From: Saprospiraceae bacterium | GTDB taxonomy: Bacteria > Bacteroidota > Bacteroidia > Chitinophagales > Saprospiraceae | Length of the DNA stretch: 40,740 bases | Direction of reading: 5' to 3' | Assembly: GCA_014379065.1 (NCBI GenBank) | Contig: JACMMM010000675.1 | Coordinates: 1-40,740 of the forward strand | Part shown: positions 3,311 to 40,740 of the stretch, in pieces | Layout: each line of letters starts with the position of its first letter | Numbering within the stretch: position 1 is the stretch's first letter | Notes under the pieces: generated by a model | Database searches by the model: none | The model's input: only the letters and a program-made list of their open reading frames with translations | What the model was told of the DNA's origin: nothing | Position numbers and translations under genes: made by a program

Positions 3311-4231
3311 ATGACCGAAGTGCTCCCTTCTGCTGCTGAATGCCCGACTAAAAGTGCTGTGATCCAAGCACTCGCTTACTTCGAGGTTTTTTCCTACCCG
3401 CTCACGCCGGAAGAGATTTTTGCTTTTTGCGCCGAACCACGTTCAACACGGGAGGAAGTTTTTGACAGATTGCAAAGCCTTGTGGAACAAGGCAGTGCGT
3501 TCCAATTTGGTGGATTCTTCCAATTAAAAAAGGAGGCTTCGTGGGGGGGAAACCGCCGCGACTGCAACTGTCGCGCGGATAAATTTTTGCCCATTGCACG
3601 GCGCGTGGCGCGCTTCATTGGCTGTTTTCCATTTGTGCGCGGCGTGTTCGTGTCGGGTTCGCTCTCGAAGCATTGTATGAGGCCCGACAGTGACATTGAT
3701 TTTTTTGTGGTTACGGCGCCGGGCCGCTTGTGGCTCGCCCGAACCTTGCTGGTTCTTTTCAAAAAAATTTTCCTCCTAAATTCCCACAAATACTTCTGCG
3801 TCAACTACTTTGTGGATACGGAGCATCTGGAAATCGAAGAAAAGAATCGGTTCACCGCCACGGAATCCGTCACGTTATTGCCAATGTGGGGGCGTGAAAT
3901 TTACCTGGATTTTTGCCGAGCCAACGTTTGGGCATGGCAACGCTACCCGCATTTTGCCCAACGCCCAACAGTGGGAATTCCGGCCTATTCAAGAGGTTTT
4001 TTCAAAAAATTGTTGGAAAAAATGCTGACTGGAAAACTCGGTGACTGGCTCGACCGAAAAGCGATGCGACTTACCGTGTCCTTTTGGAAACGTAAATTCC
4101 AGGCAATGGACTCCGAGACGTTCGATCTTGCACTCAAATCGCGCCGGGGCGTGTCGAAACATCACCCGCTTCATTTTCAGCAAAAAGTGTTGGAGCGGTT
4201 TGAGGAGAATTTGCGCCGTTTAGGTCATTAG
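3311..4231 (+). CDS. Pol-beta-superfamily nucleotidyltransferase-domain protein
   Basis: VFVSGSLSKHCMRPDSDIDFFVV carries the GS-x(9-10)-DxD NTase motif. I chose the ATG at 3311 over the TTG at 3296 used by the ORF track. Confidence 0.65.
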   Translation: MTEVLPSAAECPTKSAVIQALAYFEVFSYPLTPEEIFAFCAEPRSTREEVFDRLQSLVEQGSAFQFGGFFQLKKEASWGGNRRDCNCRADKFLPIARRVARFIGCFPFVRGVFVSGSLSKHCMRPDSDIDFFVVTAPGRLWLARTLLVLFKKIFLLNSHKYFCVNYFVDTEHLEIEEKNRFTATESVTLLPMWGREIYLDFCRANVWAWQRYPHFAQRPTVGIPAYSRGFFKKLLEKMLTGKLGDWLDRKAMRLTVSFWKRKFQAMDSETFDLALKSRRGVSKHHPLHFQQKVLERFEENLRRLGH

Positions 4232-4304
4232 GTCATTTGTCGTCATTGGGGTCATTGCGTCATTTTCAATAGCGATAAATGACCCCAATGACGACAAATG
4301 ACCT
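4230..4304. repeat. Perfect 27-bp-stem palindrome built from GTCATT words (bidirectional terminator candidate)
   Basis: AGGTCATTTGTCGTCATTGGGGTCATT (4230-4256) is the exact reverse complement of 4278-4304, with a 21-nt loop. The left arm starts inside the last codons and stop of the NTase gene. The palindrome sits between convergent genes. Confidence 0.85.
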
Positions 4305-4320
4305 AAATGACGAATATCGT

Positions 4321-6819: not shown

Positions 6820-6861
6820 AAGGTATTGATAATGAGGGTAAAAATATGGTAGTATAAATTT

Positions 6862-7315
6862 CGGTGCTACGCACCTTGTGTCGTGTTCTTTGGGGGATTT
6901 CTACCGACGTTTTGGCTGCTCTGCAGCGTGGCCTTGGCTTGGCTTTCCCATTGCCGCAGAGCGGCTTAACGTCGGTAGAATTGCGATTTTCGGTTTGATC
7001 AGAAGGTGCGTAGCACCGGAACTCAGTCGCGCAATGTCCCGGTGCTACGCACCTTTCCACACCTTCCCACTATTTTTCTACCGACGTTTGGCTGCTACGC
7101 AGCAAGCGCCAATACCAAGCGGTAACGTTGCTGCATAGCAGCCAAAACGTCGGTAGAAATCGTCATTGCGAATTGTTTAGGAGGTGCGTAGCACCGGAAC
7201 CCGGCGGCGCTATGTTGCGGTGCTACGCACCTTGTCACCTACCTATGCTATATTTCTACCGACGTTTGGCTGCTACGCAGCGACGCCATGGCTTGGCATT
7301 GCGCCCTGTTGCGAA
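6862..7315. repeat. REP/REPIN-like cluster left of the RAYT gene (two full ~155-bp nested-hairpin units at 6862-7018 and 7040-7196, plus a half unit from 7218)
   Basis: Outer inverted repeat is GGTGCTACGCACCT / AGGTGCGTAGCACC. Inner inverted repeat is TTCTACCGACGTT(T)TGGCTGC / ..AACGTCGGTAGAA. In unit 2 the inner stem is about 30 bp and nearly perfect. Confidence 0.85.
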
Positions 7316-7326
7316 ACAAACAATCA

Positions 7327-7806
7327 TTATTCCCATTCCACCACATCTTCCCAAAAATCGAACAAATACTTTTCCTCAAACTCAATCTCTGCTTTTCTCA
7401 GCATTTCGAGATACTCCTCGCGGAATGATTTTTTGCGGTGATGCTCGTCTTGCCTTTCAATATATGTCGCTACGGCTGGCACTTGCGAACGGCTGTACGA
7501 AAACGCTCCATACCCAATCTGCCACGCAAATTTAAATGGCGACAATTTGTTGTCATTAATAAACTCATTGGAAGACGTTTTTATCTCTTCCACCAATTTT
7601 GGCAAAGGTTGAGAAGGTCGGTAGCCGATCAAGATATGAATATGATCGGGCCGGGAATTGATTTGCAGCATTTTATGTCCGTGGTTTTGGACAATCCCTG
7701 TGATATAAGCGTGCAAGCGTTCTCGCCATGATTTTTGAATCAGGGCCTGACGATGTTTTACAGCAAAAACTAATTGGAAATGAATTTGAGTGTAGGTGTT
7801 AGCCAT
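7327..7806 (-). CDS. REP-associated tyrosine transposase (RAYT; IS200/IS605 Y1 TnpA-like)
   Basis: 159 aa. HUH motif in RPDHIHILIGY and catalytic Tyr region VATYIERQDEHH. REP-like hairpin clusters flank it on both sides. Confidence 0.85.
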   Translation of the reverse strand: MANTYTQIHFQLVFAVKHRQALIQKSWRERLHAYITGIVQNHGHKMLQINSRPDHIHILIGYRPSQPLPKLVEEIKTSSNEFINDNKLSPFKFAWQIGYGAFSYSRSQVPAVATYIERQDEHHRKKSFREEYLEMLRKAEIEFEEKYLFDFWEDVVEWE

Positions 7807-7880
7807 TTGGCAGGATTTTGAAATGAATTGAACAAAAATAGGCCAAATCCTTTAAATAAACAACTCGCCGTGGCTAGGTT

Positions 7881-8201
7881 CGGTGCTACGCACCTTATGT
7901 CATTCCTCAATGGTCTTTCTACCGACGTTTTGGCTGCTACGCAGCGACACCTTGGTTGGCTTTCCTATTGCCGCAGAGCGGCTTAACGTCGGTAGAAATT
8001 GTGATTTTGGTTCGTTCAGAAGGTGCAGCGCACCGGAACTCTGCGCTTTGCTTTCCCAATTTCATTGCTTTTCCAAAATAGTTTACGCACTGCGTAAACT
8101 ATGAAGAAATTGTGGCTTTGATTTATTGAGTAGGTACAGCGCACCGCAACCTCGTATCGAAGGTTACTTTCCTAATAATTAGACGCACTGCGTCAATTAT
8201 T
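7881..8201. repeat. REP/REPIN-like cluster right of the RAYT gene
   Basis: One full unit at 7881-8036 has the same outer and inner arms, with the right arm variant AGGTGCAGCGCACC. It is followed by two copies of a second module: AGGT(G/A)CAGCGCACCG, then a hairpin with core ACGCACTGCGT (8078-8102 and 8174-8201). Confidence 0.8.
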
Positions 8202-8296
8202 GGAATCCGGAAGATTGGTACCTAGCAAACCACTATAAATTGCTTTCAAAACAAAACTGGCTGCCCAAGCATTCCGCTCGAACAGCCAGTTAAAAT

Positions 8297-8366
8297 CGTC
8301 ATTGGGTCATTTATCGTTATTGGGTCATTGAGAATGACGATAAATGACCCAATGACCTAAATGACG
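8297..8366. repeat. GTCATT-word palindrome immediately downstream of the aconitase stop (terminator candidate)
   Basis: GTCATTGGGTCATTTATCGT pairs with ACGATAAATGACCCAATGAC, a stem of about 20 bp. It uses the same word family as 4230-4304. Confidence 0.75.
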
Positions 8367-10678: not shown

Positions 10679-11323
10679 ATGTTTCGCGGCAAAAAAGGAA
10701 CGAGTGATGAAGGAAAAAGTTCGGGAACTTGTAATGTTTCGCATCATCTTGCGACTAATCTTTTTAAACAAAACTCTGTGGCTTTACCCGACGCAGCATT
10801 CGTTCAGTTATTGGTTCAACATCAGAACATCGTGCACAAAATCTGCCGGGCATATTGCCCATTGGTGGAAGACCAGCGCGACCTTTCTCAGGAAATCGCG
10901 CTTCAACTCTGGCGGGCCTATCCCAATTTTCGGAACGAGGCAAAAGAAAGCACTTGGATTTACCGCCTTCGTACCAATTTTTTTGCGCTCAAAAACCTGA
11001 ACAAAGGCATTTCCATGCATCAACCGCTTCGTCTGATGCTTAAGGAGTCCATCCAGTTTTGGCAATTAGGCCTGAAGGTTTACTTCTGGGGCGGAGTATT
11101 GTTGTTGCCCATTGTGTTTATGGCTGCAAGGTTGTGGCGGCAACAAACCATCGGCACTGACAGCCTCCAGTTTTTTACAGGCAGTACTCCCGTAGTTATG
11201 TTCAAGGCAGCGCTTGCCTGGGTATCTGTTTCAGCTTTGGTTTGGGTTTTAATCAAGTTTTCCTACGGGAAATATGTAGACAAACTGAAAACATGCCTCA
11301 ACGAAATGGACGCGGTGGTATGA
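10679..11323 (+). CDS. Sigma-70 region-2-like N-terminal domain fused to a two-TM C-terminal half (atypical; start uncertain)
   Basis: [56 protein letters not shown] is an ECF region 2. No region-4 HTH appears in any frame downstream. Instead there are two hydrophobic helices ([20 protein letters not shown] and [18 protein letters not shown]). An in-frame GTG at 10778 is an alternative start. Confidence 0.5.
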
Positions 11324-11336
11324 ACTGGCTCATGGT

Positions 11337-12119
11337 TCACTTCCTACGAAAAACATTTTCATCGGTTCGAATAGATGGAATGGTCAATTTGTCCTGTTCA
11401 ATATAATAGTGCCCATATTCCCGTGCATTGCCATTAACCCTATCTGTATAAAGCATTCCGCCTCCCGTACACCAAACTGTATAACTCAGGGATAATTCAT
11501 GCTCAGGTCGCTTTCCCCAAATGCGTTCCAATTTATCATCTCGGCTAAACATCATCATATTGCCGTCCGCATGAACGGAGAGATACATTGCCACACCTAC
11601 ATTTTCCCAGATGCCTATTAGGTTTGGGTCAAAATTGCAGGGGACTTGCAAGTTAGAGTCTGTTGCCTTTATGAAGGTGGAAGAGAGTGCAAACTTTTGT
11701 TTGTAATGCTCCATCCTTAGTAAATCGATTTTTTCTGGCCAGGACGATTTCCGCAATGTCACGGTTGTTCTTTCCGGGACAACTGCACTGGGGAATTGTT
11801 TAATTTCTTGTTCTGTCAAGCGGATTGAATCGCTGGCTGGATTCCCTGAAATGGTGAACCCAAAGGAGGGCTCGGCAAAAGTTTTCAAGCCGACAAAGCC
11901 AAATTTTACCTTACTGGCCGTAGTTTGGCTGTCAATTTGTACAAGGGCTACAGAATAACATTCCTTATCGTATACCAGATAGCCTTGCCAAGCATTCTTT
12001 CCAACAGATTCGATCTGAAGCGAAACCATATTACCATAGATCACCCCGGTGAAATATTGGGCGAAAAGTGGTTTTGACAACGCAAAGACAATGGTCAGGG
12101 CAATGAAAAATTTGGACAT
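11337..12119 (-). CDS. Secreted hypothetical protein
   Basis: The ATG at 12119 gives the signal peptide MSKFFIALTIVFALSKPLFAQ. The 19-aa extension in the ORF track (MKIAQKDNTFTKN..) is read-through from the M1-gene relic upstream. Confidence 0.6.
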   Translation of the reverse strand: MSKFFIALTIVFALSKPLFAQYFTGVIYGNMVSLQIESVGKNAWQGYLVYDKECYSVALVQIDSQTTASKVKFGFVGLKTFAEPSFGFTISGNPASDSIRLTEQEIKQFPSAVVPERTTVTLRKSSWPEKIDLLRMEHYKQKFALSSTFIKATDSNLQVPCNFDPNLIGIWENVGVAMYLSVHADGNMMMFSRDDKLERIWGKRPEHELSLSYTVWCTGGGMLYTDRVNGNAREYGHYYIEQDKLTIPSIRTDENVFRRK

Positions 12120-12136
12120 GGCGGACACAGCAGTTA

Positions 12137-12310
12137 GGTTTTTCGTAAACGTGTTGTCTTTCTGCGCAATCTTCACCCGCTGGCGGTAGAGTGTTTTGCC
12201 GTATTTTTTGTCGCCTTCCGGCTTAGAAAAAGCACCAATTTCTATACAGTCATTACAGGCACTTCGGTCTCTTTACCGAGTTCGTCGGCTTTGAGTTTGC
12301 GGCATTCACC
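12137..12310 (-). pseudogene. Frameshifted relic of the 3' end of an ABC-permease/M1-peptidase gene (copy of 17229-17415)
   Basis: It aligns by eye to 17253-17415 with about a dozen substitutions and a 1-nt deletion. It translates as ECRKLKADELGKETEVPVMTV-stop, then out of frame as IGAFSKPEGDKKYGKTLYRQRVKIAQKDNTFT. The intact gene reads ECRKLKADELGKETEVPVNDWIEIGAFAKPEGDKKYGKTLYRQRVKIAQKDNTFT. Confidence 0.75.
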
Positions 12311-12317
12311 TAAGTTG

Positions 12318-13913
12318 TTATTTGTTCCTAGCCACCCTAAAGCCTATAGAAGTTTGTTTGATTTCGGGGCTAAAAAAATTGCGGCAAAAGACGGTACAGC
12401 GTTTTTCCCGGTAGCTATATGCTCCGCCTCGAATAACCTTTGTGGTGCCTAAAAGCGGGCCTGGAACATTTTTAGCAGGGGTTCGGCTAGAAAAACCATC
12501 ATAATAATCTGCATGATACCAATCCCAGCACCACTCCATAACATTCCCGCTCATATCATATAACCCTAATTGATTTTTGTTTTTTAAAGAGCCCGTAGGC
12601 AATGTACGCAACCGGGCTTTATCGGCCTCAATGTTAATAAGCCCCACATCATAATTGACTGTTTCTTTAGTAATCACGTTATGCCCGTTGCCAAATTTTA
12701 CATCTTTGCCTCCTCCTCTTGCCGCATATTCCCATTCAGCTTCGGTAGGTAGCCGATAGCCATTTGCACCTGGATTTGTGGTTACTACGTTGTATTCATC
12801 TATTTTATACACTTCAGCAAATCCATCCTTTTTACTTCTCCAGTTGCAATAGTTGATGGCATCAAGCCAACTGATATTCATGACAGGACGATCACCTCGC
12901 CCCCAACCTTCATCTGGTGGTTTTGGATAATGCGTCTCCGAACAAAATGCATCATACTCCTTAAATTTCAATTCTTTTACTCCAATATAGAAGTCGGCAA
13001 CTTGTGCAGGATGAGGCGTTTCGTCTTTTTTTTCTCTATTTTTTTCTTTCTCAAATGTATTGCCCATTTCGAAAGACCCTCCAGATACCAAAGTCATCTG
13101 CGGCTTGGATTTGATTACAAGGGTATTAATCATGTCAATTGCATCCTTTTTATACCGGCAAGGCCATTGACAGGAATTAAGGTATTTTTGAATAGAGTCT
13201 AAATCTTCATAAGGGTTGACTGATAGCCAATGCAATTCATCCCTTTTTATCTGGTTTATTAGATTTGTTTTCCTGTCCAATGCCTTTCGCTTATATATGC
13301 ATAAACATATTGGGCCACAATATGGTGGATTGCAATATTTTAGATATTCTGAATCAATTTTATTAGGGTCATTTGTATTTTCTACGGATTTCCATCTGTT
13401 TAAATCAATACTGATTAGATTGTTAAGGGTGTCAATTCTTGCCAAGGCTTGCTTTGAATAGGCACAATTGGTTTCTTGTTTGCATTTATCAAGGTATTCC
13501 GATTGTATGTATGCCGGGTCAATGGATTTTTTTACTTTATTCCAAAGTTGTTCATCAAGCTCTGGGTTGGAGGGAAATTGATTTCTTTGATCCTCTCCTT
13601 TGAAATCATCCTTTTTATCATCATGATTCGGAATATATTTCTCAATTTCTTTTTGCGTTTCTTTAATTTTTAACTCCAAGCTATGGCAATCATCCTTGTT
13701 GATGGCAAGTTTATCCGGATTTGTGCAGCAACTTGAAGATAATCCATCCTTATATACCCTAAGAGCGGATTGTAATTTGCTTATTTTCTTGTCCCGAACG
13801 CCCATTTGATATAGGCTATCCCCATTGTTTAAAAAAGGATAGCAACATGGTTTACCCTGAGCGGATAACAATACAGGGAACACGAACAGAAATAGGTAGA
13901 AAAAATGTCTCAT
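12318..13913 (-). CDS. Secreted protein: Cys-rich helical repeats plus a C-terminal FGE-sulfatase (SUMF1/EgtB/PvdO-fold) domain
   Basis: Signal peptide MRHFFYLFLFVFPVLLSAQ. Three repeats follow the pattern W..V....D...I..EYL..C....C.YK..A...I..L. The C-terminal half has MTLVSGGSFEMGN, RPVMNISWLDAINYCNW, YRLPTEAEWEYAARGG, YDMSGNVMEWCWDWY, RGGAY and GFRVARN, which are classic FGE-sulfatase fold motifs. Confidence 0.8.
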   Translation of the reverse strand: MRHFFYLFLFVFPVLLSAQGKPCCYPFLNNGDSLYQMGVRDKKISKLQSALRVYKDGLSSSCCTNPDKLAINKDDCHSLELKIKETQKEIEKYIPNHDDKKDDFKGEDQRNQFPSNPELDEQLWNKVKKSIDPAYIQSEYLDKCKQETNCAYSKQALARIDTLNNLISIDLNRWKSVENTNDPNKIDSEYLKYCNPPYCGPICLCIYKRKALDRKTNLINQIKRDELHWLSVNPYEDLDSIQKYLNSCQWPCRYKKDAIDMINTLVIKSKPQMTLVSGGSFEMGNTFEKEKNREKKDETPHPAQVADFYIGVKELKFKEYDAFCSETHYPKPPDEGWGRGDRPVMNISWLDAINYCNWRSKKDGFAEVYKIDEYNVVTTNPGANGYRLPTEAEWEYAARGGGKDVKFGNGHNVITKETVNYDVGLINIEADKARLRTLPTGSLKNKNQLGLYDMSGNVMEWCWDWYHADYYDGFSSRTPAKNVPGPLLGTTKVIRGGAYSYREKRCTVFCRNFFSPEIKQTSIGFRVARNK

Positions 13914-13926
13914 TAATCAAGAATTG

Positions 13927-15354
13927 TTATTTTTTATAGTATTCATAAAGGTTTTTATAAAAAGTGGAATCCTTTGGATGATATATTATAGAAACCATAA
14001 TGTCTCCAAAAATATCCTCATAAGAATAAGAATGCTTAGCCCATTCAGCATAAGTATCAACCCGATCTTGGCGATACTCTAATCTTTTTATAGATTCATT
14101 AGCTTCACCTTTATAAGCACCGTTTGGGAACGCGCTATTGAAATTTTTCCAAACCGGAAGCGTGTCTAGCCGTCGTGCCTCTTGGATGGCCATGTCTTCT
14201 TTTTTTGATATAGGATTAGGTTTGGGGGGAATAATGCAAGTAATAAAAATCAGGAAGGCTAATGCAATTACAGCATAGGAAATCAATTTCCCGTGCCTCT
14301 CCCAAACATCAGACAATATTTGGTATATATTTGGGAGGCTGGGAGGTGCCTTAGTATTAGTTGAGTTTTTGTGGTTATTGGATGTTGTCGGAACTTCTTT
14401 TTGTATAGGCTTCTGCGACGTTCTCTGGCGACCCGACTGACTAGGTTTTATTTTATTTTTGATTTCTTTTTCGAGTACTTGAACAGGAGGTGCTGGAATC
14501 GGATTTATATCCGCTATGTTTTCAAGTTTTGCAATTTCCAATCCACATTCGGAAATTCGACTTTCCACTAAAACGCGATCTACTTCAAACCCTGACTCCC
14601 AATTTTCATGCGCCTTTTCATACATTTTTATGGCTTGGCTCCAATTTCTTTGATCCCTAAAGTCCTCAGCCACCTTCATTGAAGAAAGAAACATACTTTT
14701 CCTACTTTCAAATTGTCGCGCCTCATTTTCCTTGGCGATCTGCTCCTGGCATAGTATGATCTTTTGGTTAATCTCTTCTTTTTCAGGTTTCAAATCCAGT
14801 TGCCAGAAAGCGAGTGCAGATGTAAATTTCGAAAGCGATCCTTCCCATTGTTGCGTATTAAACAGATCATCGGCATCTTTAATTAGCCCTTCAAACGCTT
14901 TCTTGTTGCGGCGTTTTTTGGCAACCAGCTCAATTTGTTCTGTAACCTCGTATACCGCATCATCTAAATTCTTTTGCCTCATAGGTATCCCGTCTGTAGG
15001 CAAATATTTTATAGGTTTTAAAGGCGTATGCTCCAGACTACATGGGCCGATTTTAACGGGTATAACAATTGCCTCACCGTCTATATGCCTTTGGACAGCT
15101 TTGTCCATATAATCCGAATAAAAATAATCAGAACCTAAGGCATCTGTACTGACCAACAAAACAATTATTTCAGCACGTAAAAGTTGAGCGTTTAATATAT
15201 CCAAAGTTACATCTCCAGGGAGTATGTCATTCTCATCCCCTATTACAATAATTCCAGTCTTAGCCAAGGGAGTCAACCCTTTTCTAAGTTTATCCCTGAC
15301 CACTTTATCTTCGACTACACTAGCCAGAAGAACATTAATTGGCTTCATTTGCAC
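13927..15354 (-). CDS. Membrane-anchored TIR-like domain protein (cytoplasmic TIR_2-like N-terminus, helical region, low-complexity linker, one TM, extracytoplasmic C-terminal module)
   Basis: ILPGDVTLDILNAQLLRAEIIVLLVSTDALGSDYFYSDYMDKAVQRHIDGEAIVIPVKIGPC....LKPIKYLPTDGIPM tracks the bacterial TIR_2 pattern (ILPG..W...I...L..ADIILLLIS.DFLASDYCY..EM..A.ERH..GEARVIPI.LRPC......L.ALP.DGKP). The TM helix is LISYAVIALAFLIFITCIIPP. The gene is 13 nt from the FGE-domain gene, so they are probably co-transcribed. Confidence 0.65.
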   Translation of the reverse strand: MQMKPINVLLASVVEDKVVRDKLRKGLTPLAKTGIIVIGDENDILPGDVTLDILNAQLLRAEIIVLLVSTDALGSDYFYSDYMDKAVQRHIDGEAIVIPVKIGPCSLEHTPLKPIKYLPTDGIPMRQKNLDDAVYEVTEQIELVAKKRRNKKAFEGLIKDADDLFNTQQWEGSLSKFTSALAFWQLDLKPEKEEINQKIILCQEQIAKENEARQFESRKSMFLSSMKVAEDFRDQRNWSQAIKMYEKAHENWESGFEVDRVLVESRISECGLEIAKLENIADINPIPAPPVQVLEKEIKNKIKPSQSGRQRTSQKPIQKEVPTTSNNHKNSTNTKAPPSLPNIYQILSDVWERHGKLISYAVIALAFLIFITCIIPPKPNPISKKEDMAIQEARRLDTLPVWKNFNSAFPNGAYKGEANESIKRLEYRQDRVDTYAEWAKHSYSYEDIFGDIMVSIIYHPKDSTFYKNLYEYYKK

Positions 15355-15373
15355 TCTAAAGCTACGTTTTTAA

Positions 15374-15422
15374 CAAAGGTAGACATATTTGTTAAAATGC
15401 TGCTAGAAACATTTTATCTTTG
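15374..15422. promoter_or_regulatory. Divergent promoter region: TACCTTTG on the minus strand (15374-15381) and TATCTTTG on the plus strand (15415-15422)
   Basis: Both match TAnnTTTG. The minus box is 20 nt from the TIR-gene ATG (15354). The plus box is 55 nt from the ATG at 15477. Confidence 0.45.
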
Positions 15423-15476
15423 TCCCTGAATCACAAGATACCATCCTATACCTCACCCTATAACTTTTAGAATGTA

Positions 15477-17045
15477 ATGAAAAAACTCCTTACGTCCTCT
15501 TTTCGAATCACAATTCGAACCTTGGTTTTGCTGCTTGGCCTTTTGTCTTTTGAATGCCAAGGGCTAACACAGTCTTTGCCTGACAGTTTAACTTTTGTTC
15601 CCCAACCGGAAGCGTCCTTTTTTAAAGCATTTTTTGTTGATTTGACATCAGGCCCGGTTTACAGAAAAGAGAAACGAGCCATTAGAAAGTTCTTAAGAGA
15701 TGCTGATGATGAAAAACTTGAAGCTTATATACATCGGCTTGAAGTGGATGGAGAAGACAAAGAAATTATGTTGAGGAATTTCCCTTTTGTGTATTACGTT
15801 TTATTAAATTCATGGTATCGCTGTGCTAACCAGAAGCATTACAATAAAGATCTCGCTTATCGCTATGGTTCCATAGCAGCAGAATATGGCAGACAGAATA
15901 CATTTAGTGAGGACGATGCTGTTTTAGTGCGCAAGGTTACTAAATTCGCTAAAAAGTATGAAAGTGTATGTTTGCCTTATGGAAAAATAAAAAAACCTAG
16001 AGAGCTAGTTGTTTTCATGGCAGAAGAGCGACACAAATATATCTTAGAAAAAACGACTGCGGTTAAAGAAGTTGGTGAAGATAGTGAAAAAATAAGAGTG
16101 AAGTTGGAACCTCTCGAAAAAAAGTCACTCCAACTTGCGAAGGAGATTGCTGATTTAGAAAAACAATTAATCAGTACTAAATCAGAAATTAGAGGTCTTT
16201 CAATGCAAAACTATGAGGATGCTTTAAAGGACATTGATGCCTTGATCAAAAAAAACGAGATTAGTCGTGGAAGCGGTAATGTAACACTTGACACGACTTT
16301 GGCAGGAGGGGCCAGGTTCATAAACAGTTCTGAAATTACAAGTGACACGATTAGTTCCACGATATATAATACCGGGTATAAGAAAGGGGTTTTTTGCTCG
16401 CCAGAAATTCGATCTGCCACTAATAAGATCGTTTCAACTATCTTTAAAATAGCAGATTTCCAGAAGAAAACGGAAAGAGTTTCACCTGACTATTTAAAAA
16501 AAATACAATTTAATGTCACCATAACAGGAAAAGCAGACGGAGATAAAGTAAAGCGTAGAAATGGGGTTTGTACTTTGAAAAATAATGATTCATCTCCAAT
16601 AACAGGGGAATATTATACTGGAGGGGATATCGAGTTTAGAAACCCAATTAAAGTAAATATTGCACCTGGCGGTCCTATTTGCGACGAAGAACTGGCATTT
16701 TTGCGCGCTCATTGTGCCTATTCAGAATTAAAGATAATTTTACCAGAATTCGGAATCCCCGCTTCCAATATAAATCCAAAGATTATCGTAAGGGTATACG
16801 ACGAAATAGGCCCGGAGTACCGCGGGATTGATTTAGAATTTAATGTGGACAAGCTGTTCGTTCATTTAAGAAACGAGATTGACAAGAAATATGCTGAGAA
16901 GCAAATAGTTGATGAAAAAATCGCAGATTTAAGGCGTCAACTGCAAGAAAATGCAGAAAAAATTACCGATATCAAAAAACCCTGGGTTAAAGAAGACAAA
17001 ATTATAAAAGAGAAACTTGAGGAAATAAAATTATATAAAGCATGA
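15477..17045 (+). CDS. Secreted coiled-coil hypothetical protein, possibly with a degenerate OmpA/MotB-like module
   Basis: There is a signal peptide (TLVLLLGLLSFECQG). Coiled-coil segments are LEPLEKKSLQLAKEIADLEKQLISTKSEI and EKQIVDEKIADLRRQLQENAEKI. The segments VTITGKADGD ... EELAFLRAHCAYSELKIILPEFGI ... YRGIDLEFNV loosely recall the OmpA_C pattern I.GHTD..G ... N..LS..RA..V...L ... NRRVE. This is a weak call. Confidence 0.55.
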   Translation: MKKLLTSSFRITIRTLVLLLGLLSFECQGLTQSLPDSLTFVPQPEASFFKAFFVDLTSGPVYRKEKRAIRKFLRDADDEKLEAYIHRLEVDGEDKEIMLRNFPFVYYVLLNSWYRCANQKHYNKDLAYRYGSIAAEYGRQNTFSEDDAVLVRKVTKFAKKYESVCLPYGKIKKPRELVVFMAEERHKYILEKTTAVKEVGEDSEKIRVKLEPLEKKSLQLAKEIADLEKQLISTKSEIRGLSMQNYEDALKDIDALIKKNEISRGSGNVTLDTTLAGGARFINSSEITSDTISSTIYNTGYKKGVFCSPEIRSATNKIVSTIFKIADFQKKTERVSPDYLKKIQFNVTITGKADGDKVKRRNGVCTLKNNDSSPITGEYYTGGDIEFRNPIKVNIAPGGPICDEELAFLRAHCAYSELKIILPEFGIPASNINPKIIVRVYDEIGPEYRGIDLEFNVDKLFVHLRNEIDKKYAEKQIVDEKIADLRRQLQENAEKITDIKKPWVKEDKIIKEKLEEIKLYKA

Positions 17046-17073
17046 TAGCTGGGTAAAAAAATCTGAAAAAAAA

Positions 17074-17108
17074 CTGCCAACCGGGATAAACTCAGTTGGC
17101 AGTTTTTC
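17074..17108. terminator. Bidirectional rho-independent terminator between convergent genes
   Basis: AAAAAAAA-CTGCCAAC-cgggataaactca-GTTGGCAG-TTTTT. Confidence 0.65.
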
Positions 17109-17149
17109 AGGCTTGTGCGGTGAATCTCATTTAGGGAGGTCAAATTTAC

Positions 17150-20100
17150 TTACCTTTTCAGCTCCTTCACATTGTCCTTCGGCTCCCGGTCTATCAATAT
17201 CCTAAACGGATCAATGCCCGCCTTATCCGGTTTTTCATCTACCAGAAACGTGAACGTGTTGTCTTTCTGCGCAATCTTTACCCGCTGGCGGTAGAGTGTT
17301 TTGCCGTATTTTTTGTCCCCTTCCGGTTTTGCAAAAGCCCCGATTTCTATCCAGTCATTCACCGGCACCTCGGTCTCCTTGCCGAGTTCGTCGGCTTTGA
17401 GTTTGCGGCATTCCACTTGAATGGTTAACTCATATTTTCCATTGCCGAGTTCTTTCATCGAGGCCTCTTTGGTCTTGTTCTCAAACAGCGTGATGTCCCA
17501 GAACAAGTCCTGAATGATGTATTTCAGCGAATCCGGTGTCTGTGCCGCAAATTCATTCACCACATCAATGCTGGTCGGGTACGGCGGGGCCTTGTAGCGG
17601 AATTTTTCCAAAAACGCCTTTAAGCCAGCATTCACCTTGTCTTCGCCGATCATCTCCTTGAGGTAGTACATCACTGCCGAGCCTTTGTTGTAGTGGATGT
17701 AGCCCTGCCGTTCGCATTTCGCGAGCGGCATTTCGCGCAGGGTTTCGCGGCCTCGGTCTCGGAGGTATTTGTCCGTTTCATACTCCAAAAACTTGCGCAT
17801 CACATCGCGGCCATATTCGTGTTCCATCACCATAAGTGCGGAATATTGGGCGAAGGTCTCGGTGGTCATTTCCGCGCCCTGCATGTTCGCGCCGCATTCT
17901 TGGTGTGCCCACCATTGATGGCCCATCTCGTGCGCCACCACATAGTACACCATGTCGATATCGTCTTTTTCCTGTCGGAAATCTTCGATAAAACCAATGC
18001 CTTCAGAATACGGCATGGTGCCAGGGAAGGCCTGGGCAAATTCCGCATACCGGGGAAACTCTATGATGCGGCATTGTTTGTGGTAGTAAGGCCCGAAGTG
18101 GGCGGTATAATATTCTATGCTTTTTTGCATGGATTTCAGCATACGCGGCACGTTTCGGGCATGGTCGGCATGGTAGTACACCTCGTAAGTGATGCCTTCT
18201 TTTTGTTCCCGTGCCACCTCATAGTGTGCAGACAGGAAGGAGTAAAAATTCCAGGCTTTGTGGTCAAGTTTGTAGTGGAAAATGCGGCGATCCCCCTCCG
18301 TCTTTTCACTGAGGAGCGAACCCGGTGCGATGGCAATCTGATCGGCAGAAGTGCTGATCGTGGTTTCTACGGTGACCCAATCCGAGTCAATGCTGAGATA
18401 TTGGTTGCTGCGGGCGGCAAGGTTGGCCGTGTCGAGTGGCGGCATCCGTGTCTTTTCGGGCAGGCCATACTCGCGGCGTTTGTTTTTTTCGCTGAGCTCG
18501 CCGCCTTCGTGGTAGCCAAAGGTGGGCGAGATGTCACCGTTGTTGAAAAAGGTACCGTTTTGCATGATGCTTGTGTTCGACAGTTCGTTTTCAAAACCTT
18601 TGGCGCGATATACCGTGTTGAATTTCAACAACATAGAATCTCCCGGAGCAAGTGTGGGGTTGATTTTGTAAAAGCGCAAGTAAAGCGTCGAGTCGTTGAG
18701 CAAGAGGGCGAGGCGTGGATTATCAAATTGAAAATCGCCTTGCGAAGGAATGTGCATGAACAAGGTGTCGATCGGCTTTGCGTGTATGTTGCGCACCCAC
18801 ATTTGGCCATCGGCCTCGTAAGTACGAGTTTCGGGGAAAATGCGGATGTCGTATTTCAGGTCGTAAGTGCGTGGCTGCGGGAATCCTTGAAAATGCTTGT
18901 ACTCGTTTTCGTACCGCGCCATGCGTTTCTCCTGCGTGTTTTCGCTGACGGGTTTGTTCGAAATTTTGGTGTTGTAATAAACAAAGCCCGCACTGCAAAT
19001 CCATACCGCGAGTAGGCCCAATCCTACAATTCTGTACGTTTTCCATTCTTGCCTGGCCAGCGAGAGGCGTTTGCGCCAACCAGACTCTTTGCCGCGCGGC
19101 CAAAGGCAGATTGCCACGATCGCCAGCAAACCGCTGATCAACAGCCAGTAAGAATGAAACCATGTAAGTCCTTGTGCGTAAGGCAGATAGCCGTAAAGGT
19201 CGCTGACGGTGTACGAGGGGGTGCCACCGAGTTTCACCATGTTGCTCGAAATGTCGATAACGCCCCACACAAAAGAGTTGACCGCTACCAGAACAATGCA
19301 GATGAAAAACCCAAGGTACATGTTGGGCGACACCGCATGAATGAACATGAACAATGCGGCCAGAAAGGCAAAGCCCAGCACATCGAGCACCAGCAGTTCG
19401 CGGATATAAACACCTAGTTCAAAACGGTCGTAGCCATGCAAGGCTTGAGCGCACACGGCAGCGATTATGGCGACGAGATTCAGCAAGAACACCACCGAAA
19501 CGATGGTGCCGTATTTTGCCAAATAGCCCGTCCAAGTGCGGGTGGGCAACGCGTCATAGATTTCATTGACTTTGGCTGTGCGCTCTTTCCACACCAGTGC
19601 ACCCGTGAAATAAGTCAGGATAGAAATGGTGAACAGGTAAAACGCACCCCGCACGATGTCCACCATCGTGTAGGTTACGGGCAGGTTGTGGGTGCCGTAA
19701 CCATCGGTGGCGTATTGAAAACTGGGGATGCAATTGAGCAGCCCGATAAAAGTGAGCAGGATAAACGGGGTGCTTTTGATAACGCCATTGAAGTCGGTGC
19801 GCATTTGACTCCACAGTTGGCGGAGGGTGGTAGAAGTACCAACTCCCGGCGTGACACGGGGCAATTCACCGAGTTGCTTGAGACCGTATTCCTCTGGTTC
19901 TGAGATGGTTTTAGCCTTTTTGCCGCCCTTCATTTTTTCGGCAAAATCAAACTTAAAATACCCTGCAATAAGCACGGCCAAACCGACGGCCATCCAAAGC
20001 AAACGGTTCACCAAGATGCCGGGCGCAAAGAGGCTGACCGATTGGTGGTTCTTCTCGTCCACAGTCCAATACTTCGTAAGTATGGAAAAAGAGCGACTGC

Positions 20101-20746
20101 CAAAGGGATCCAGAAGGCTTGCCACTTGTTCATTCTGCATATCCCGCATCAGGTTGCCCGCTATGATGTACCCCACCAAAAGCACTACGGCTGCCACGAA
20201 GGAGTACATGGTGCTGCGGGTAAGCACGGCTACTGCGTAAAGAATCCCTCCGGCAAAAATCATGTTGGGGATCACCACGGTAATGTATGCGTTGAGGTGT
20301 CCCTGAAACTCAAAAGGCCCAAACCGCGATGCATCCACCCAACCCATTGCAGGCCCGATCACAGCCCCTATCCACATGCCCAAAGACACGCCCAACATCG
20401 GGATTAAAGCAACCAACAACGCCCCGGCGAAATGGCCAAAATAGTAGCCCGCCTTGCTGATCGGGGAGGAAAAAACGATTTGGGAAGTATTGCTCTCAAA
20501 ATCGCGGACAGCAGCGCCATTGAGGAACGCCACCACGAGCAACAAGGAGAGGATGGAAAACACGACATACCAGTTCTGCGCCACAAATGGGGCGTTTTTC
20601 CAGACGTTGCCGTAGGAGCCGCCGATTTGAATCTCGTCGCTGACAGTGGCCCCGAAGGTCATCAGAGCAAAGACGAAGAGGAAAATCCAAGGCATGGGCG
20701 AGCGCAACCATGCCTTTATTTCAAAAGAGAAAAAGGTGCTAAACAT
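17150..20746 (-). CDS. ABC-2-type transporter permease fused to an M1-family aminopeptidase domain
   Basis: 1198 aa. The N-terminal ~560 aa hold many TM helices, as in ABC-2 permeases. The C-terminal half carries the M1 zinc site VVAHEMGHQWW ... ETFAQY and an aminopeptidase-N-like C-terminus. It lies directly downstream of the ABC ATPase gene. Confidence 0.85.
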   Translation of the reverse strand: MFSTFFSFEIKAWLRSPMPWIFLFVFALMTFGATVSDEIQIGGSYGNVWKNAPFVAQNWYVVFSILSLLLVVAFLNGAAVRDFESNTSQIVFSSPISKAGYYFGHFAGALLVALIPMLGVSLGMWIGAVIGPAMGWVDASRFGPFEFQGHLNAYITVVIPNMIFAGGILYAVAVLTRSTMYSFVAAVVLLVGYIIAGNLMRDMQNEQVASLLDPFGSRSFSILTKYWTVDEKNHQSVSLFAPGILVNRLLWMAVGLAVLIAGYFKFDFAEKMKGGKKAKTISEPEEYGLKQLGELPRVTPGVGTSTTLRQLWSQMRTDFNGVIKSTPFILLTFIGLLNCIPSFQYATDGYGTHNLPVTYTMVDIVRGAFYLFTISILTYFTGALVWKERTAKVNEIYDALPTRTWTGYLAKYGTIVSVVFLLNLVAIIAAVCAQALHGYDRFELGVYIRELLVLDVLGFAFLAALFMFIHAVSPNMYLGFFICIVLVAVNSFVWGVIDISSNMVKLGGTPSYTVSDLYGYLPYAQGLTWFHSYWLLISGLLAIVAICLWPRGKESGWRKRLSLARQEWKTYRIVGLGLLAVWICSAGFVYYNTKISNKPVSENTQEKRMARYENEYKHFQGFPQPRTYDLKYDIRIFPETRTYEADGQMWVRNIHAKPIDTLFMHIPSQGDFQFDNPRLALLLNDSTLYLRFYKINPTLAPGDSMLLKFNTVYRAKGFENELSNTSIMQNGTFFNNGDISPTFGYHEGGELSEKNKRREYGLPEKTRMPPLDTANLAARSNQYLSIDSDWVTVETTISTSADQIAIAPGSLLSEKTEGDRRIFHYKLDHKAWNFYSFLSAHYEVAREQKEGITYEVYYHADHARNVPRMLKSMQKSIEYYTAHFGPYYHKQCRIIEFPRYAEFAQAFPGTMPYSEGIGFIEDFRQEKDDIDMVYYVVAHEMGHQWWAHQECGANMQGAEMTTETFAQYSALMVMEHEYGRDVMRKFLEYETDKYLRDRGRETLREMPLAKCERQGYIHYNKGSAVMYYLKEMIGEDKVNAGLKAFLEKFRYKAPPYPTSIDVVNEFAAQTPDSLKYIIQDLFWDITLFENKTKEASMKELGNGKYELTIQVECRKLKADELGKETEVPVNDWIEIGAFAKPEGDKKYGKTLYRQRVKIAQKDNTFTFLVDEKPDKAGIDPFRILIDREPKDNVKELKR

Positions 20747-29848: not shown

Positions 29849-29870
29849 CGGGTAAACCTTGATAAGCCGC

Positions 29871-30947: not shown

Positions 30948-31008
30948 GGGCGCGGCTGATTAAGGCAGCGAAGATAAAGTGTTTTTTATTTTAAAACAAA
31001 ATGTTTTT

Positions 31009-31052
31009 AAAAAAAAACGCAAGCGGTGATCCCGAACGCTCGGAATCACCGC
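31009..31052 (-). terminator. Rho-independent terminator of the SPFH gene
   Basis: The stem GCGGTGATCCCGA / TCGGAATCACCGC is 13 bp with one mismatch. On the minus strand it is followed by a 9-nt U-run. It lies 44 nt after the stop. Confidence 0.7.
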
Positions 31053-31095
31053 TTTGCTAAATCTTATGATCGTTCCAATGGAGCGATCAATGGCA

Positions 31096-40640: not shown

Positions 40641-40740
40641 GGTTGAGAGTTTAGGGTTTAAAGTTTAGGGTTGAGAATTTAGGGTTTAGGGTTGAGAATG
40701 TTGAGCCGCTCGACCCTAAACCCTAAACTCTCAACCCTAA
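40641..40740. repeat. TTTAGGG/TTGAGA-word palindrome (truncated by the right window edge)
   Basis: The left side is GGTTGAGAGTTTAGGGTTTAAAGTTTAGGGTTGAGAATTTAGGGTTTAGGGTTGAGAATGTTGAG. The loop is ccgctcga. The right side is CCCTAAACCCTAAACTCTCAACCCTAA. Confidence 0.8.

Follow-up and report, generated by a model that had tools for sequence, protein, structure and literature searches.

A foreign three-gene TIR island at the 3′ end of a peptidase M1 gene in a Saprospiraceae bacterium, probably acquired by homology-anchored import

Insertion at the 3′ end of a gene is familiar from e14 and phage 21, which enter the 3′ end of icd and carry a substitute for the displaced end, as other elements do; the repeat at icd, 165 nt, is similar in length to the one described below. 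Displacement of gene ends is also known from T6SS effector–immunity arrays and the orphan tips of Rhs/CDI loci (Kirchberger et al. 2017, PMC5361080), a paper that cites work on homology-facilitated illegitimate recombination (HFIR; de Vries & Wackernagel 2002, Prudhomme et al. 2002). Among conflict systems, FGE-sulfatase/C-type-lectin-fold (FGS) domains serve as sensor or 'neutralising' domains (Kaur et al. 2020, PMC7159879) and occur in STAND sensors (PMC13581612), Zorya has a MotAB-like envelope sensor in ZorA/ZorB (PMC11890865), and Thoeris combines ThsA with the TIR protein ThsB. The locus analysed here touches on all of these, and lies in a stretch of 40,740 nt from a Saprospiraceae bacterium (contig JACMMM010000675.1), referred to as the window. 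Its features are as follows.

11337-12119, minus strand: 260-aa signal-peptide protein, the native downstream neighbour of M1 at the empty site
12144-12307, minus strand: stranded M1 3′-end remnant (codons 1112-1166)
12308-17149: island, 4.8 kb, low GC, three genes
12318-13913, minus strand: FGE/TvpA-like lectin-fold protein, 531 aa, secreted (Pfam PF03781, 8.8e-49)
13927-15354, minus strand: TIR protein, 475 aa (PADLOC ThsB1, 6e-23; Pfam TIR_2)
15349-15476, no strand: intergenic region from which the 522-aa gene and the TIR-FGE operon diverge, with presumed promoters (ORF map)
15477-17045, plus strand: secreted protein, 522 aa, whose family is rare (31 relatives in 1.84 billion representatives)
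17150-20746, minus strand: intact ABC-2 permease/peptidase M1 fusion, 1198 aa (Pfam Peptidase_M1, ABC2_membrane_3)
17249-17413, minus strand: upper repeat copy, within the functional M1 gene (codons 1112-1166 of 1198)

The island is a clear outlier in composition, as a sequence-only reading of this DNA had suspected: GC is 0.336-0.41 in 500-nt windows from 12501 to 17000 and 0.44-0.55 in the directly adjacent ones, and GC3 is 0.32-0.35 in the three island genes compared with 0.44-0.66 in 13 other genes of the window. The same reading had reported no integrase, transposase or tRNA inside the island, and this is borne out, with no match of the island proteins to integrase, transposase or excisionase families (Pfam, PADLOC, NCBIfam) and no tRNA found. 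A Pfam scan of 15 other large ORFs of the window, all but three at 33.9-40.6 kb, likewise returned no integrase or excisionase.

Repeat search and local alignment confirm two direct copies of the M1 3′ end, 3-4 nt away from the coordinates first given: 12144-12307 and 17249-17413 align end to end at 91.5-92% identity, the differences being 13 substitutions and a single 1-nt indel. Self-BLAST of the whole window finds no copy beyond this unique pair, so the repeat does not come from a dispersed family, an origin that would have counted against the insertion. The upper copy lies in the functional M1 gene, as proposed, but not at its extreme C-terminus, and the window's remnant contains nothing that corresponds to M1's last 33 codons (17248-17150). 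The repeat begins exactly on a codon boundary (M1 codon 1112), and over its first 32 nt the copies do not differ. The lower copy is separated from M1 by three ORFs (ORF map) and frameshifted by a 1-nt deletion, its reading meeting stop codons, all as first described; it carries two non-synonymous changes. Both copies are host-like in composition.

The positions of the differences are informative. Between remnant and functional copy in the window, 12 of 13 substitutions fall at third codon positions, and when the same comparison in a second species (L081, below) is pooled with it, the count is 18 of 19 (P = 3e-8 against a uniform distribution, P = 2e-5 against a model of in-situ decay); the copies therefore diverged as working genes and are, judged by this codon-position pattern, alleles of two genomes. 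The pattern disfavours the suggestion that M1 or its end was duplicated in tandem in situ and the second paralog largely replaced by foreign genes. Direct orientation and host-like composition of both copies would suit such a duplication, but the island holds no other M1-derived sequence (repeat search, self-BLAST), a duplicated M1 end occurs in 0/79 other species representatives and the island is demonstrably mobile between species (dS, below), so that we regard this origin as very improbable. Differences are unevenly spread along the window's remnant, with 2 sites in the last 68 nt and 11 in the first 96 nt, a contrast that is not significant (P = 0.075) and that hints at conversion or crossover within the repeat.

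The empty site that had been predicted exists in a relative, L003, with the order CHRD-ABC-M1, a 75-nt spacer, a signal-peptide gene, sigma and aconitase, and no island; the gene that follows M1 there (13670-14449) is the homologue of the 11337-12119 gene, the two proteins sharing 68% amino-acid identity. This supports the proposal that the block is foreign and inserted at the 3′ end of M1, the lower copy being the displaced M1 end. In principle, the empty site of L003 could also be a secondary loss through recombination between the repeats. L081, from a different species, has the same three island genes. Alignment of these loci defines the edges of the island.

12120-12149, minus strand: native upstream region of the next gene, meeting the remnant at a TTTACG microhomology (L003 empty-site alignment)
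12308-12317, minus strand: right island junction, a 10-nt spacer from the FGE stop codon to the remnant; illegitimate joint
17074-17102, no strand: bidirectional-terminator-like hairpin, 8-bp GC-rich stem with A-run and T-run flanks
17150-17157, minus strand: left island junction, within M1's last codon (window/L081/L003/L081-remnant alignment)

At the left junction, which is identical in the window and L081, the native end ...GAGCTGAAG followed by TGA/TAA has become ...GAGCTGAA joined to AAGGTAA, with one extra codon and a new stop. The hairpin just beyond is island DNA, as read from the sequence, and stands between the convergent M1 and 522-aa genes; the fold of 17050-17150 reaches -27.3 kcal/mol (z = -5.2). 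On the far side, some 145 nt of the inferred ancestor are absent at 12120-12149, namely what remained of the M1 end together with its stop, and ~45 nt of the spacer. The 'weaker similarity' once seen past the repeat (GGTTTTTC, ~12136 and 17228) is no continuation of it: 12120-12149 is native, as in L003, and shares GAAAAACC and the TTTACG microhomology with M1 by chance. The right joints differ between the two genomes (alignment), the M1 remnant of L081 being a different piece, from codon ~1153 to the native stop. Junction microhomologies are TTTACG in the window and, in L081, CAAC plus a GTTCC-like motif. At the right joint of the window, microhomology is weak. In the 41-nt segment common to both remnants, each is nearer to its own genome's functional copy than to the other remnant, which calls either for gene conversion between copies or for a donor close to the recipient in each case.

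In the comparison of the window with L081, dS is 0.18 for the 522-aa gene, 0.26 for TIR and 0.29 for FGE, against 1.20 for ABC, 0.70 for M1 and 1.26 for aconitase, and four-fold-site identity is 80-87% in island genes and 48-63% in host genes; the island thus moved after the hosts had diverged. The earlier option of an old, immobilised insertion does not survive this 3- to 6-fold lower synonymous divergence than in flanking genes of two species. dN/dS is 0.21-0.22 in the island and 0.03-0.05 in host genes. Sites informative among the three taxa group the window with L003 in ABC (84, vs 52 with L081) and aconitase (195 vs 134), but with L081 in M1 (339, vs 207 with L003), and the switch is located at the ABC/M1 boundary, which suggests that the M1 gene arrived together with the island. 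M1 dS is well above that of the island, pointing to at least two exchanges or to lineage-specific crossover points.

A single old insertion, passed on vertically from the common ancestor of window and L081, in which the island would seem young only because its alleles were later swapped through the flanking repeats by ordinary homologous recombination, and M1 copies were kept similar within each genome by conversion, would explain the identical left junction and the affinity of each remnant to its own functional copy, and three microhomology-flanked deletions suffice to derive both remnants from one ancestor. It would still demand horizontal exchange of the island to account for the dS values, and the restriction of differences to third codon positions is not what decay plus conversion predicts. 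Moreover, with ABC and aconitase placing the window nearer to island-free L003 than to L081, a shared ancestral insertion needs loss in L003 or another species tree. We hold this history to be unlikely.

Only slightly more credible, and still improbable, is a site-specific element mobilised in trans by an integrase encoded elsewhere, with its att core at M1 codon 1112, which would carry a substitute M1 end and leave the lower copy as the displaced native one. As with e14 and phage 21 at icd, the target gene is intact and a displaced, mostly synonymously diverged end lies on the insert's far side; the direct-repeat geometry, the hit on one gene in two species and the opening of the repeat at a codon boundary with 32 shared nucleotides all fit, as does a distant cassette relative (L084) that lies between direct repeats of ~238 nt, with the neighbouring gene kept intact by them. 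Unlike those elements, the island has no integrase, nor do the 15 scanned ORFs supply an integrase or excisionase, and its substitute end is not element-specific, having host-like GC and, between the two species, a host-level divergence of 11-13% rather than the island-level 6-10%. The discordant, apparently foreign ancestry covers the whole of M1, beyond its end, and the right joints are not the same in the two species. Related cassettes use unrelated sites, shared DNA stopping 6-22 nt past the terminal stop codons, and one (L096) is without repeats. Usual att cores are also far shorter than the 240-264-nt repeats. An att-type element with a short end of its own finds no support, on account of the host-like copies, the discordant ancestry of all of M1 and the cassettes elsewhere; of the initial idea of an element supplying a replacement 3′ end, the insertion at the M1 end is supported and the att-site element with its own short end is not.

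On balance, the island probably came from a related donor by homology-anchored import, apparently through ordinary recombination, with no mobility enzyme of its own involved. A donor fragment carrying M1 and the cassette would have recombined homologously near the M1 5′ end, while its far end, 10 nt past the stop of the FGE gene, formed an illegitimate joint with the recipient M1 at codon 1112. The donor M1 would then have taken over as the working gene, leaving the last 87 codons of the recipient's M1 stranded beyond the cassette. These would be the lower repeat copy, which later lost ~145 nt by a TTTACG-flanked deletion and gained the 1-nt frameshift; remnants in general would have been eroded by later microhomology-flanked deletions. 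The succession of these steps, and the way in which the DNA was taken up, are what we infer. Counting against this mechanism are the M1 dS above that of the island, the affinity of each remnant to its own functional copy in the shared 41 nt, the uneven spread of differences along the window's remnant, the weak microhomology at its right joint and a conceivable secondary loss in L003. A precedent by analogy is the HFIR-type displacement seen at T6SS and Rhs loci (PMC5361080), with a conserved upstream anchor gene, a foreign far end joined without homology, an old 3′ piece orphaned downstream and no dedicated recombinase. The differences are that the anchor is here a housekeeping-type transporter/peptidase and not a polymorphic toxin, that the cargo is a three-gene TIR module and that the process is deduced from sequence alone.

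The 522-aa protein begins with a signal peptide and a helical N-domain; a long coiled coil, an alpha/beta domain and a long helix at the C-terminus follow (AF2 model, pLDDT 87). It finds no match in Pfam, PADLOC or NCBIfam. Its top Foldseek match, a weak one, is to the periplasmic domain of MotB (2zvz; E 0.06, prob 0.96); together with a motif seen by eye, this suggests that the alpha/beta domain is possibly OmpA/MotB-like and perhaps binds peptidoglycan. The intergenic region upstream contains one promoter-like match (15370-15398), not above chance expectation. The TIR gene, whose true start is likely the ATG at 15348, encodes a protein with its TIR domain at the N-terminus, then a helical middle part and a low-complexity linker, and a single TM helix (aa 357-375, hydropathy) before a C-terminal tail of ~100 aa. 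The 531-aa protein carries a signal peptide and a Cys-rich repeat region ahead of its C-terminal FGE-sulfatase/C-type-lectin-fold domain, whose best PDB relative is TvpA (2y3c, 6e-27), true FGEs following at about 1e-18. The TIR domain has Tyr in place of the canonical catalytic Glu and the FGE domain is without its first catalytic Cys, two absences that speak against a role in conflict.

Comparison with known systems yields partial likenesses. The N-terminal TIR fits the PADLOC ThsB1 model; unlike in Thoeris, there is no ThsA-like effector, the residue replaced by Tyr is the signal-synthesis Glu, and the TIR protein is membrane-anchored with secreted partners. With FGS and diversity-generating (DGR) systems, the island shares an FGE domain nearest to a DGR variable protein, with an incomplete catalytic Cys pair, and a link to death-type domains, which are TIR in the island and caspase or CHAT among relatives and many FGE homologues. 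Unlike in vWA and STAND proteins, the domain belongs to a separate secreted protein in the envelope and not to a C-terminal fusion, and no NTPase, reverse transcriptase or template repeat is found in the island (Pfam, self-BLAST). Zorya may share the logic of a peptidoglycan-anchored MotB/OmpA-like long-helix envelope protein coupled to a cytoplasmic output; unlike Zorya, the island has no ZorA/MotA-like channel, no ZorC/D and no PADLOC Zor match, and its MotB-like fold match is weak. PADLOC matches the three cargo proteins to no complete known defence system, and no obvious effector enzyme is among them; both points, like the weak basis of the OmpA/MotB assignment, also speak against a role in conflict.

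The cargo is conserved. The 522-aa proteins of the window and L081 are ~92% identical, and next to the gene in these two and in five more distant homologues (26-37% identity) a TIR gene always lies divergently, with FGE gene(s) next in four of the five distant loci; the remaining two contigs stop at the TIR gene. Cassette relatives keep TIR and one TM helix, their partner proteins keep signal peptides, and a LamG gene is often present; more distant relatives have caspase or CHAT instead of TIR, or Fic, ResIII or DUF1016 as neighbours. As judged from gene order, the cargo is a conserved unit, found again at each locus of close family members that could be resolved, and this TIR-FGE-coiled-coil module appears to be rare and not described before. 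It is probably an envelope conflict module, which this Saprospiraceae genome would have imported from a related donor: an envelope-spanning sensor and signalling system against phage or other invaders, in which the periplasmic proteins may sense and the membrane-anchored TIR domain would provide the cytoplasmic output.

The host is an uncultured Saprospiraceae-like bacterium, known from a metagenome contig. Comparison of the M1 protein with species-representative genomes assigns the window to Saprospiraceae. The island it carries lies between an intact core gene and a stranded piece of the same gene. The features on which the argument turns are the following.

17150-20746, minus strand: M1, the ABC-2 permease/peptidase M1 gene, an intact ORF of 1198 aa
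17249-17413: upper copy of the direct repeat, within M1
12308-17149: the island, with a 522-aa gene (plus strand), a TIR gene (minus strand, 475 aa) and an FGE gene (minus strand, 531 aa)
12144-12307: lower copy of the direct repeat, the M1 remnant
11337-12119, minus strand: signal-peptide gene, the native downstream neighbour of M1

In 500-nt windows the GC content of the island is 0.336-0.41 as against 0.44-0.55 in the directly adjoining windows, and GC3 is 0.32-0.35 in its three genes versus 0.44-0.66 in 13 other genes; the AT-richness claimed by the sequence-only reading is thus borne out by computation. The empty site predicted by that reading exists in L003, a related locus whose M1 is 91% identical in amino acids to that of the window: the order there is CHRD, ABC ATPase, M1, a 75-nt spacer, signal-peptide gene, sigma factor and aconitase, with nothing between M1 and the signal-peptide gene. 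The occupied site recurs in a second species, on the 91-kb ENA contig L081, which is collinear with the window (88.5% over 9.4 kb) and carries the three island genes immediately behind M1, their order and orientation unchanged. The layout recurs on a third contig, which comes from another sample; as an independent ENA assembly and this further sample agree in island and junction, an assembly artefact is ruled out. L081 also holds a remnant, albeit a different piece of M1 from that in the window: it follows the FGE stop codon directly, spans codons ~1153 to the native stop, and is 92.9% identical to the end of its own M1. Since it runs straight into the upstream region of aconitase, the signal-peptide and sigma genes are missing in L081.

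Other relatives have other neighbours at this position. In L001 a gene for a T9SS-tail protein follows M1. In L002 (4197-6780), from a Lewinellaceae relative with an M1 79% identical, M1 is directly followed by Abi_2 (AbiD-like) and an HTH/SocA-Panacea antitoxin-like gene, a different defence/toxin-antitoxin cargo at the equivalent position, with no M1 remnant. The idea that the M1 end is a general hotspot marked by remnants is not supported: no second M1 end was found in 79 other species representatives; one extra match, in L055, looks like a paralog. In L081 a toxin-antitoxin-like UPF0175/DUF3368 pair (15486-16471) follows aconitase and is absent at that position in the window. The signal-peptide gene, which has no family assignment, evolves fast (dN/dS 0.25 against L003); because its original upstream spacer is mostly deleted, transcripts that read through from the island operon may now be what it relies on.

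The direct repeat bracketing the island, recovered by repeat search and local alignment, comprises 13 substitutions and one 1-nt indel (~92% identity). Self-BLAST of the whole 40.7-kb window yields this single pair of copies, which rules out a dispersed repeat family. The upper copy corresponds to M1 codons 1112-1166 and starts exactly on a codon boundary (1112); it does lie within the functional gene, as had been claimed, but it is not the extreme C-terminus, the last 33 codons having no counterpart in the lower copy. The lower copy is frameshifted and runs into stop codons, just as first read. Differences between the copies fall almost exclusively on third codon positions (12 of the 13 substitutions in the window, six of six in L081), a bias with P = 3e-8 against a uniform distribution and P = 2e-5 against a model of neutral decay in one copy. 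Both copies must therefore have belonged to working genes while they diverged, and so they are alleles that come from two genomes. Within the window the remnant differs from the gene at 2 positions in the distal 68 nt and at 11 in the first 96 nt (P = 0.075). Over the 41 nt common to both remnants, pairwise distances place each closest to its own genome's gene; the same approach was applied to donor-type and recipient-type tracts within the repeat copies, where the segments are too short to separate firmly.

In look, the mobility of the island resembles that of e14 and phage 21 in icd, in that direct repeats bracket the insert and the target gene is intact. However, the island encodes no tyrosine or serine recombinase, the substitute gene end is not element-specific (between the window and L081 the functional M1 ends diverge by 11-13%, as much as host genes do), and the cassette family has no common att site, related cassettes being located at unrelated sites. 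The island consequently fails as an integrase-borne element. One six-gene related cassette, for example, occurs in two unrelated contexts, L084 and Runella L096, with the shared DNA ending 6-22 nt past the terminal stop codons. The reported lack of an integrase, transposase or tRNA in the island is confirmed: Pfam, PADLOC and NCBIfam give no match to an integrase or transposase family for the three proteins, no tRNA is present, and Pfam detects no recombinase in the 15 other window ORFs that it covered, three large ones at 33.9-40.6 kb excepted. Within the island, Rfam and promoter/terminator searches gave nothing exceeding chance.

The sole transposase-family match, 13 kb off, is a Transposase_31 gene (YhgA/Rpn-like PD-(D/E)XK; 29871-30947, minus strand). 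The stretch around it, ~29819-31096, has no aligned counterpart in L003, in which ~180 nt separate the flanking genes; local GC dips to 0.43, and the stretch is a second indel relative to L003. Rpn-family nucleases are reported to promote RecA-independent recombination. Elsewhere in the window, positions 1-2000 have a GC content of 0.35-0.40 and, ahead of a gene with a glucosaminidase domain (1913-2530), no ORFs but small ones; this edge of the contig may likewise have been acquired. A non-coding region of ~1.5 kb between a TPR gene and aconitase (6860-8360) is dense in direct and palindromic repeats of 90-290 nt, such as 6860-7024 versus 7879-8041 (85%) and the self-complementary 7003-7233. 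Imperfect intergenic palindromes of 60-90 nt (81-85% self-complementary) are found at 4224-4311, 8298-8356 and 40665-40740, the last being the contig end.

Divergence between the window and L081 dates the island relative to its hosts. The host genes ABC, M1 and aconitase have dS values of 1.20, 0.70 and 1.26 (dN/dS 0.046, 0.042 and 0.031), whereas the 522-aa, TIR and FGE genes have dS values of 0.18, 0.26 and 0.29 (dN/dS 0.209, 0.214 and 0.221); identity at four-fold sites is 48-63% in host genes and 80-87% in island genes. The island is thus far more recent than the separation of its two hosts, which disposes of the idea of an old, immobilised insertion, and it evolves under relaxed or diversifying constraint. 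The informative sites tell a second story about M1. Its neighbours favour L003, with 84 sites uniting the window with L003 and 52 with L081 in ABC, and 195 and 134, respectively, in aconitase, whereas in M1 339 sites unite the window with L081 and 207 with L003. The switch in ancestry falls at the ABC/M1 border, and the dS values agree. Since the ancestry of M1 differs from that of both neighbours, M1 arrived with, or like, the island; since its dS (0.70) exceeds that of the island, more than one exchange is needed. Divergence does not fall off along the M1 3′ end towards the island, four-fold identity being 57-67% along the whole gene. The M1 dS, the likeness of each remnant to its own genome and the near-identical distal 68 nt suggest that donors were close to each recipient, or that some gene conversion took place.

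The junctions add detail to this history. The native end of M1, in L003 and in the L081 remnant, is ...GAGCTGAAG followed by TGA or TAA, while the functional gene in the window ends in ...GAGCTGAA|AAGGTAAGTAAATTTGAC, with homologous sequence in L081. The changed end in both island-bearing genomes places the left junction inside the last codon, common to the two; a strong terminator-like hairpin (17074-17102) with A and T runs on its sides comes next. The right junctions differ: in the window the FGE stop is followed by 10 nt and M1 codon 1112, in L081 by codon ~1153. At the right joint L081 is compatible with microhomology of CAAC and the window with only 2-3 nt. The window remnant ends at TTTACG, a hexamer that M1 (codon ~1166) shares with the DNA immediately ahead of the signal-peptide gene in L003, from which it follows that the window lost ~145 nt between two TTTACG copies; the weaker similarity once taken for an extension of the repeat is this microhomology. 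The joint between the L081 remnant and the DNA upstream of aconitase falls at a GTTCC-like motif.

Given the discordant ancestry of M1, the third-position differences, and the lack of both a recombinase and a common family target, the simplest account of how the island entered, as far as sequences can tell, is homology-anchored import by homology-facilitated illegitimate recombination (HFIR). A donor fragment with M1 and the island would have crossed over homologously near the M1 5′ end, while its far end would have been joined illegitimately to the recipient M1 at codon 1112, so that donor sequence took the place of the recipient codons up to 1111, while the last 87 recipient codons were stranded. 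The apparent 'duplication' would then be a donor end plus a recipient end. L081 could reflect either a second import of this kind, joined differently on the right, or the one event and a subsequent deletion. An HFIR-type mechanism is the proposed explanation of how effector, immunity and Rhs tips become displaced (PMC5361080); the mobility of the island would work in the same way, one flank being donor-type by the discordant ancestry of M1. Of the initial insertion reading, a real insertion at a gene 3′ end with an empty site and no mobility genes stands, but the site-specific element gives way to homology-anchored import, which fits better. The independent, distant cassette in L084 (10.1 kb, GC 0.35-0.40 versus 0.47-0.52 in its flanks) fits the same process: it is surrounded by 238-nt direct repeats (696-943 and 10843-11088, 94%) that consist of the first ~7 codons plus upstream region of the adjoining 426-aa gene, with mismatches concentrated in a central patch of ~40 nt. 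The divergent intergenic region of this cassette (L084/L085) also harbours an IS (6474-7841; DDE_Tnp_1/DUF772, GC ~0.46) that the Runella copy (L096/L097), collinear in all other respects, lacks.

Among the cargo, the TIR protein matches ThsB1 in PADLOC (6.2e-23 over aa 8-152). All eight TIR proteins examined combine an N-terminal TIR domain with one hydrophobic helix ~100 residues from the C-terminus, and their membrane topology is a prediction from hydropathy only. In the proteins of the window, L081, L082 and L084 a Tyr occupies the column of the catalytic Glu (Glu of 7uxr WTEYEL, Cat1 WDEL and TIR-STING). Although a ThsB-type TIR protein is present, the island has no ThsA effector (SIR2/SLOG, Macro or TM-SLOG) and the catalytic Glu is replaced, hence the system is not Thoeris. 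Plasmid matches to the TIR protein span the TIR domain only, and no similarity was seen between its periplasmic tail and the Cys-rich repeats of FGE.

The FGE domain is nearer to the diversity-generating retroelement (DGR) variable protein TvpA (2y3c, 6e-27) than to true formylglycine-generating enzymes, from which it also differs in lacking a complete catalytic Cys pair: in alignment to 6muj (pair C-x4-C before RYR) the first Cys position is Tyr. Unlike a TvpA-like target, it has no reverse transcriptase domain, template repeat or second copy of its variable region in the window (BLAST of the FGE 3′ end), which rejects DGR diversification; in its C-terminal block the window and L081 agree at 94% identity. 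The T9SS ring lipoprotein GldK/PorK was rejected as well (TIGR03525 of NCBIfam, 110 bits against a cut-off of 350). Lectin-fold 'FGS' binders are typical of conflict systems (PMC7159879; PMC13581612), and the island shares the FGS domain with the ternary vWA-MoxR/iSTAND systems (PMC7159879), but neither it nor the related loci have a vWA, MoxR or STAND domain; without an NTPase it is not such a system. Many FGE homologues are caspase fusions.

The 522-aa protein matches no family in Pfam, NCBIfam, PADLOC and PDB profile searches, coiled-coil noise apart, and is very rare, with 31 relatives among 1.84 billion representative proteins, no matches on plasmids or phages, and no new contig in a metagenome scan for further family loci. 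An AlphaFold model from a 30-sequence alignment (pLDDT 87; a 2-sequence AF2 model was unusable, pLDDT 52) consists of a helical N-domain, a 55-residue coiled coil, an alpha/beta domain and a 60-residue C-terminal helix. Its top PDB fold match is a weak one, to the periplasmic OmpA-like domain of MotB (E 0.06, prob 0.96), and by eye the motif ITGKADG...DEELAFLRAxCAY resembles OmpA-like signatures. This similarity to MotB comes from Foldseek, and the island differs from Zorya in having no ZorA/ZorB pair, no PADLOC match for the 522-aa protein and no multi-TM partner.

The neighbourhood of the family is conserved though rare, and absent from PADLOC 2.0.

Gene content of the loci of the 522-aa family (percentages are identities of the 522-aa homologue to the window protein).
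Window locus: divergent TIR gene, yes; FGE, yes; LamG, no
L081: 92%; divergent TIR, yes; FGE, yes; LamG, no
L084/85/96 (P0127): 37%; divergent TIR, yes; FGE, two; LamG, yes
L087 (P0128): 37%; TIR not divergent but co-directional, downstream of LamG; FGE, contig stops at the TIR gene; LamG, yes
L088/89 (P0129): 29%; divergent TIR, yes; FGE, yes; LamG, yes
L090/91 (P0131): 29%; divergent TIR, yes; FGE, yes; LamG, no
L092/93 (P0134): 26%; divergent TIR, yes; contig ends at the TIR gene; LamG, no

A TIR-FGE pair also occurs in L082 (44% and 56% identity to the window pair), on a contig that starts at the TIR gene. Hydropathy predicts that the FGE, 522-aa-family and LamG proteins all begin with a signal-peptide-like sequence. 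In L095 (4288-11089) the family member P0143 (782 aa) carries an N-terminal caspase (Peptidase_C14) and lies between CHAT-domain and LamG genes; this fusion makes the death-type domain partnered with the family interchangeable. Another distant member adjoins Fic, ResIII and DUF1016 genes.

The swapping of TIR, caspase and CHAT domains, the FGS binder, the low GC, the high dN/dS and the horizontal mobility are all typical of conflict systems, and on this basis we infer that the cargo is an envelope-spanning sensing and signalling module against phages or competitors. Its periplasmic proteins would act as sensors and the TIR domain as a non-enzymatic or non-canonical cytoplasmic output, no effector enzyme being evident in the cargo. 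A bolder proposal, to which we assign a low probability, is an undescribed immune receptor complex with the logic of Toll-like receptors. In it, invaders would be sensed at the envelope by a secreted lectin-fold binder (FGE/TvpA-like) together with a coiled-coil protein anchored in the wall, both signalling through a single-pass membrane protein whose cytoplasmic TIR domain, devoid of the NADase Glu, would serve as an assembly scaffold; the cassette would spread recombinase-free with a homology arm. Full-text literature searches for TIR with FGE-sulfatase or SUMF1 returned no description of such a module; the cargo appears to be an undescribed TIR-based envelope module, while the mobile island itself is a variant of a known process.

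The island provides a clean natural example of a recombinase-free cassette crossing species boundaries. The neighbouring core gene serves as homology arm, and what is left of the recipient's own gene end is a scar that can be dated. A systematic search for scars of this kind could reveal islands missed by integrase-based and tRNA-based finders. If the module is an immune sensor, bacterial TIR signalling would extend from cytoplasmic NADase systems to surveillance of the envelope, and would come nearer to animal Toll-like receptors than any system yet characterised.
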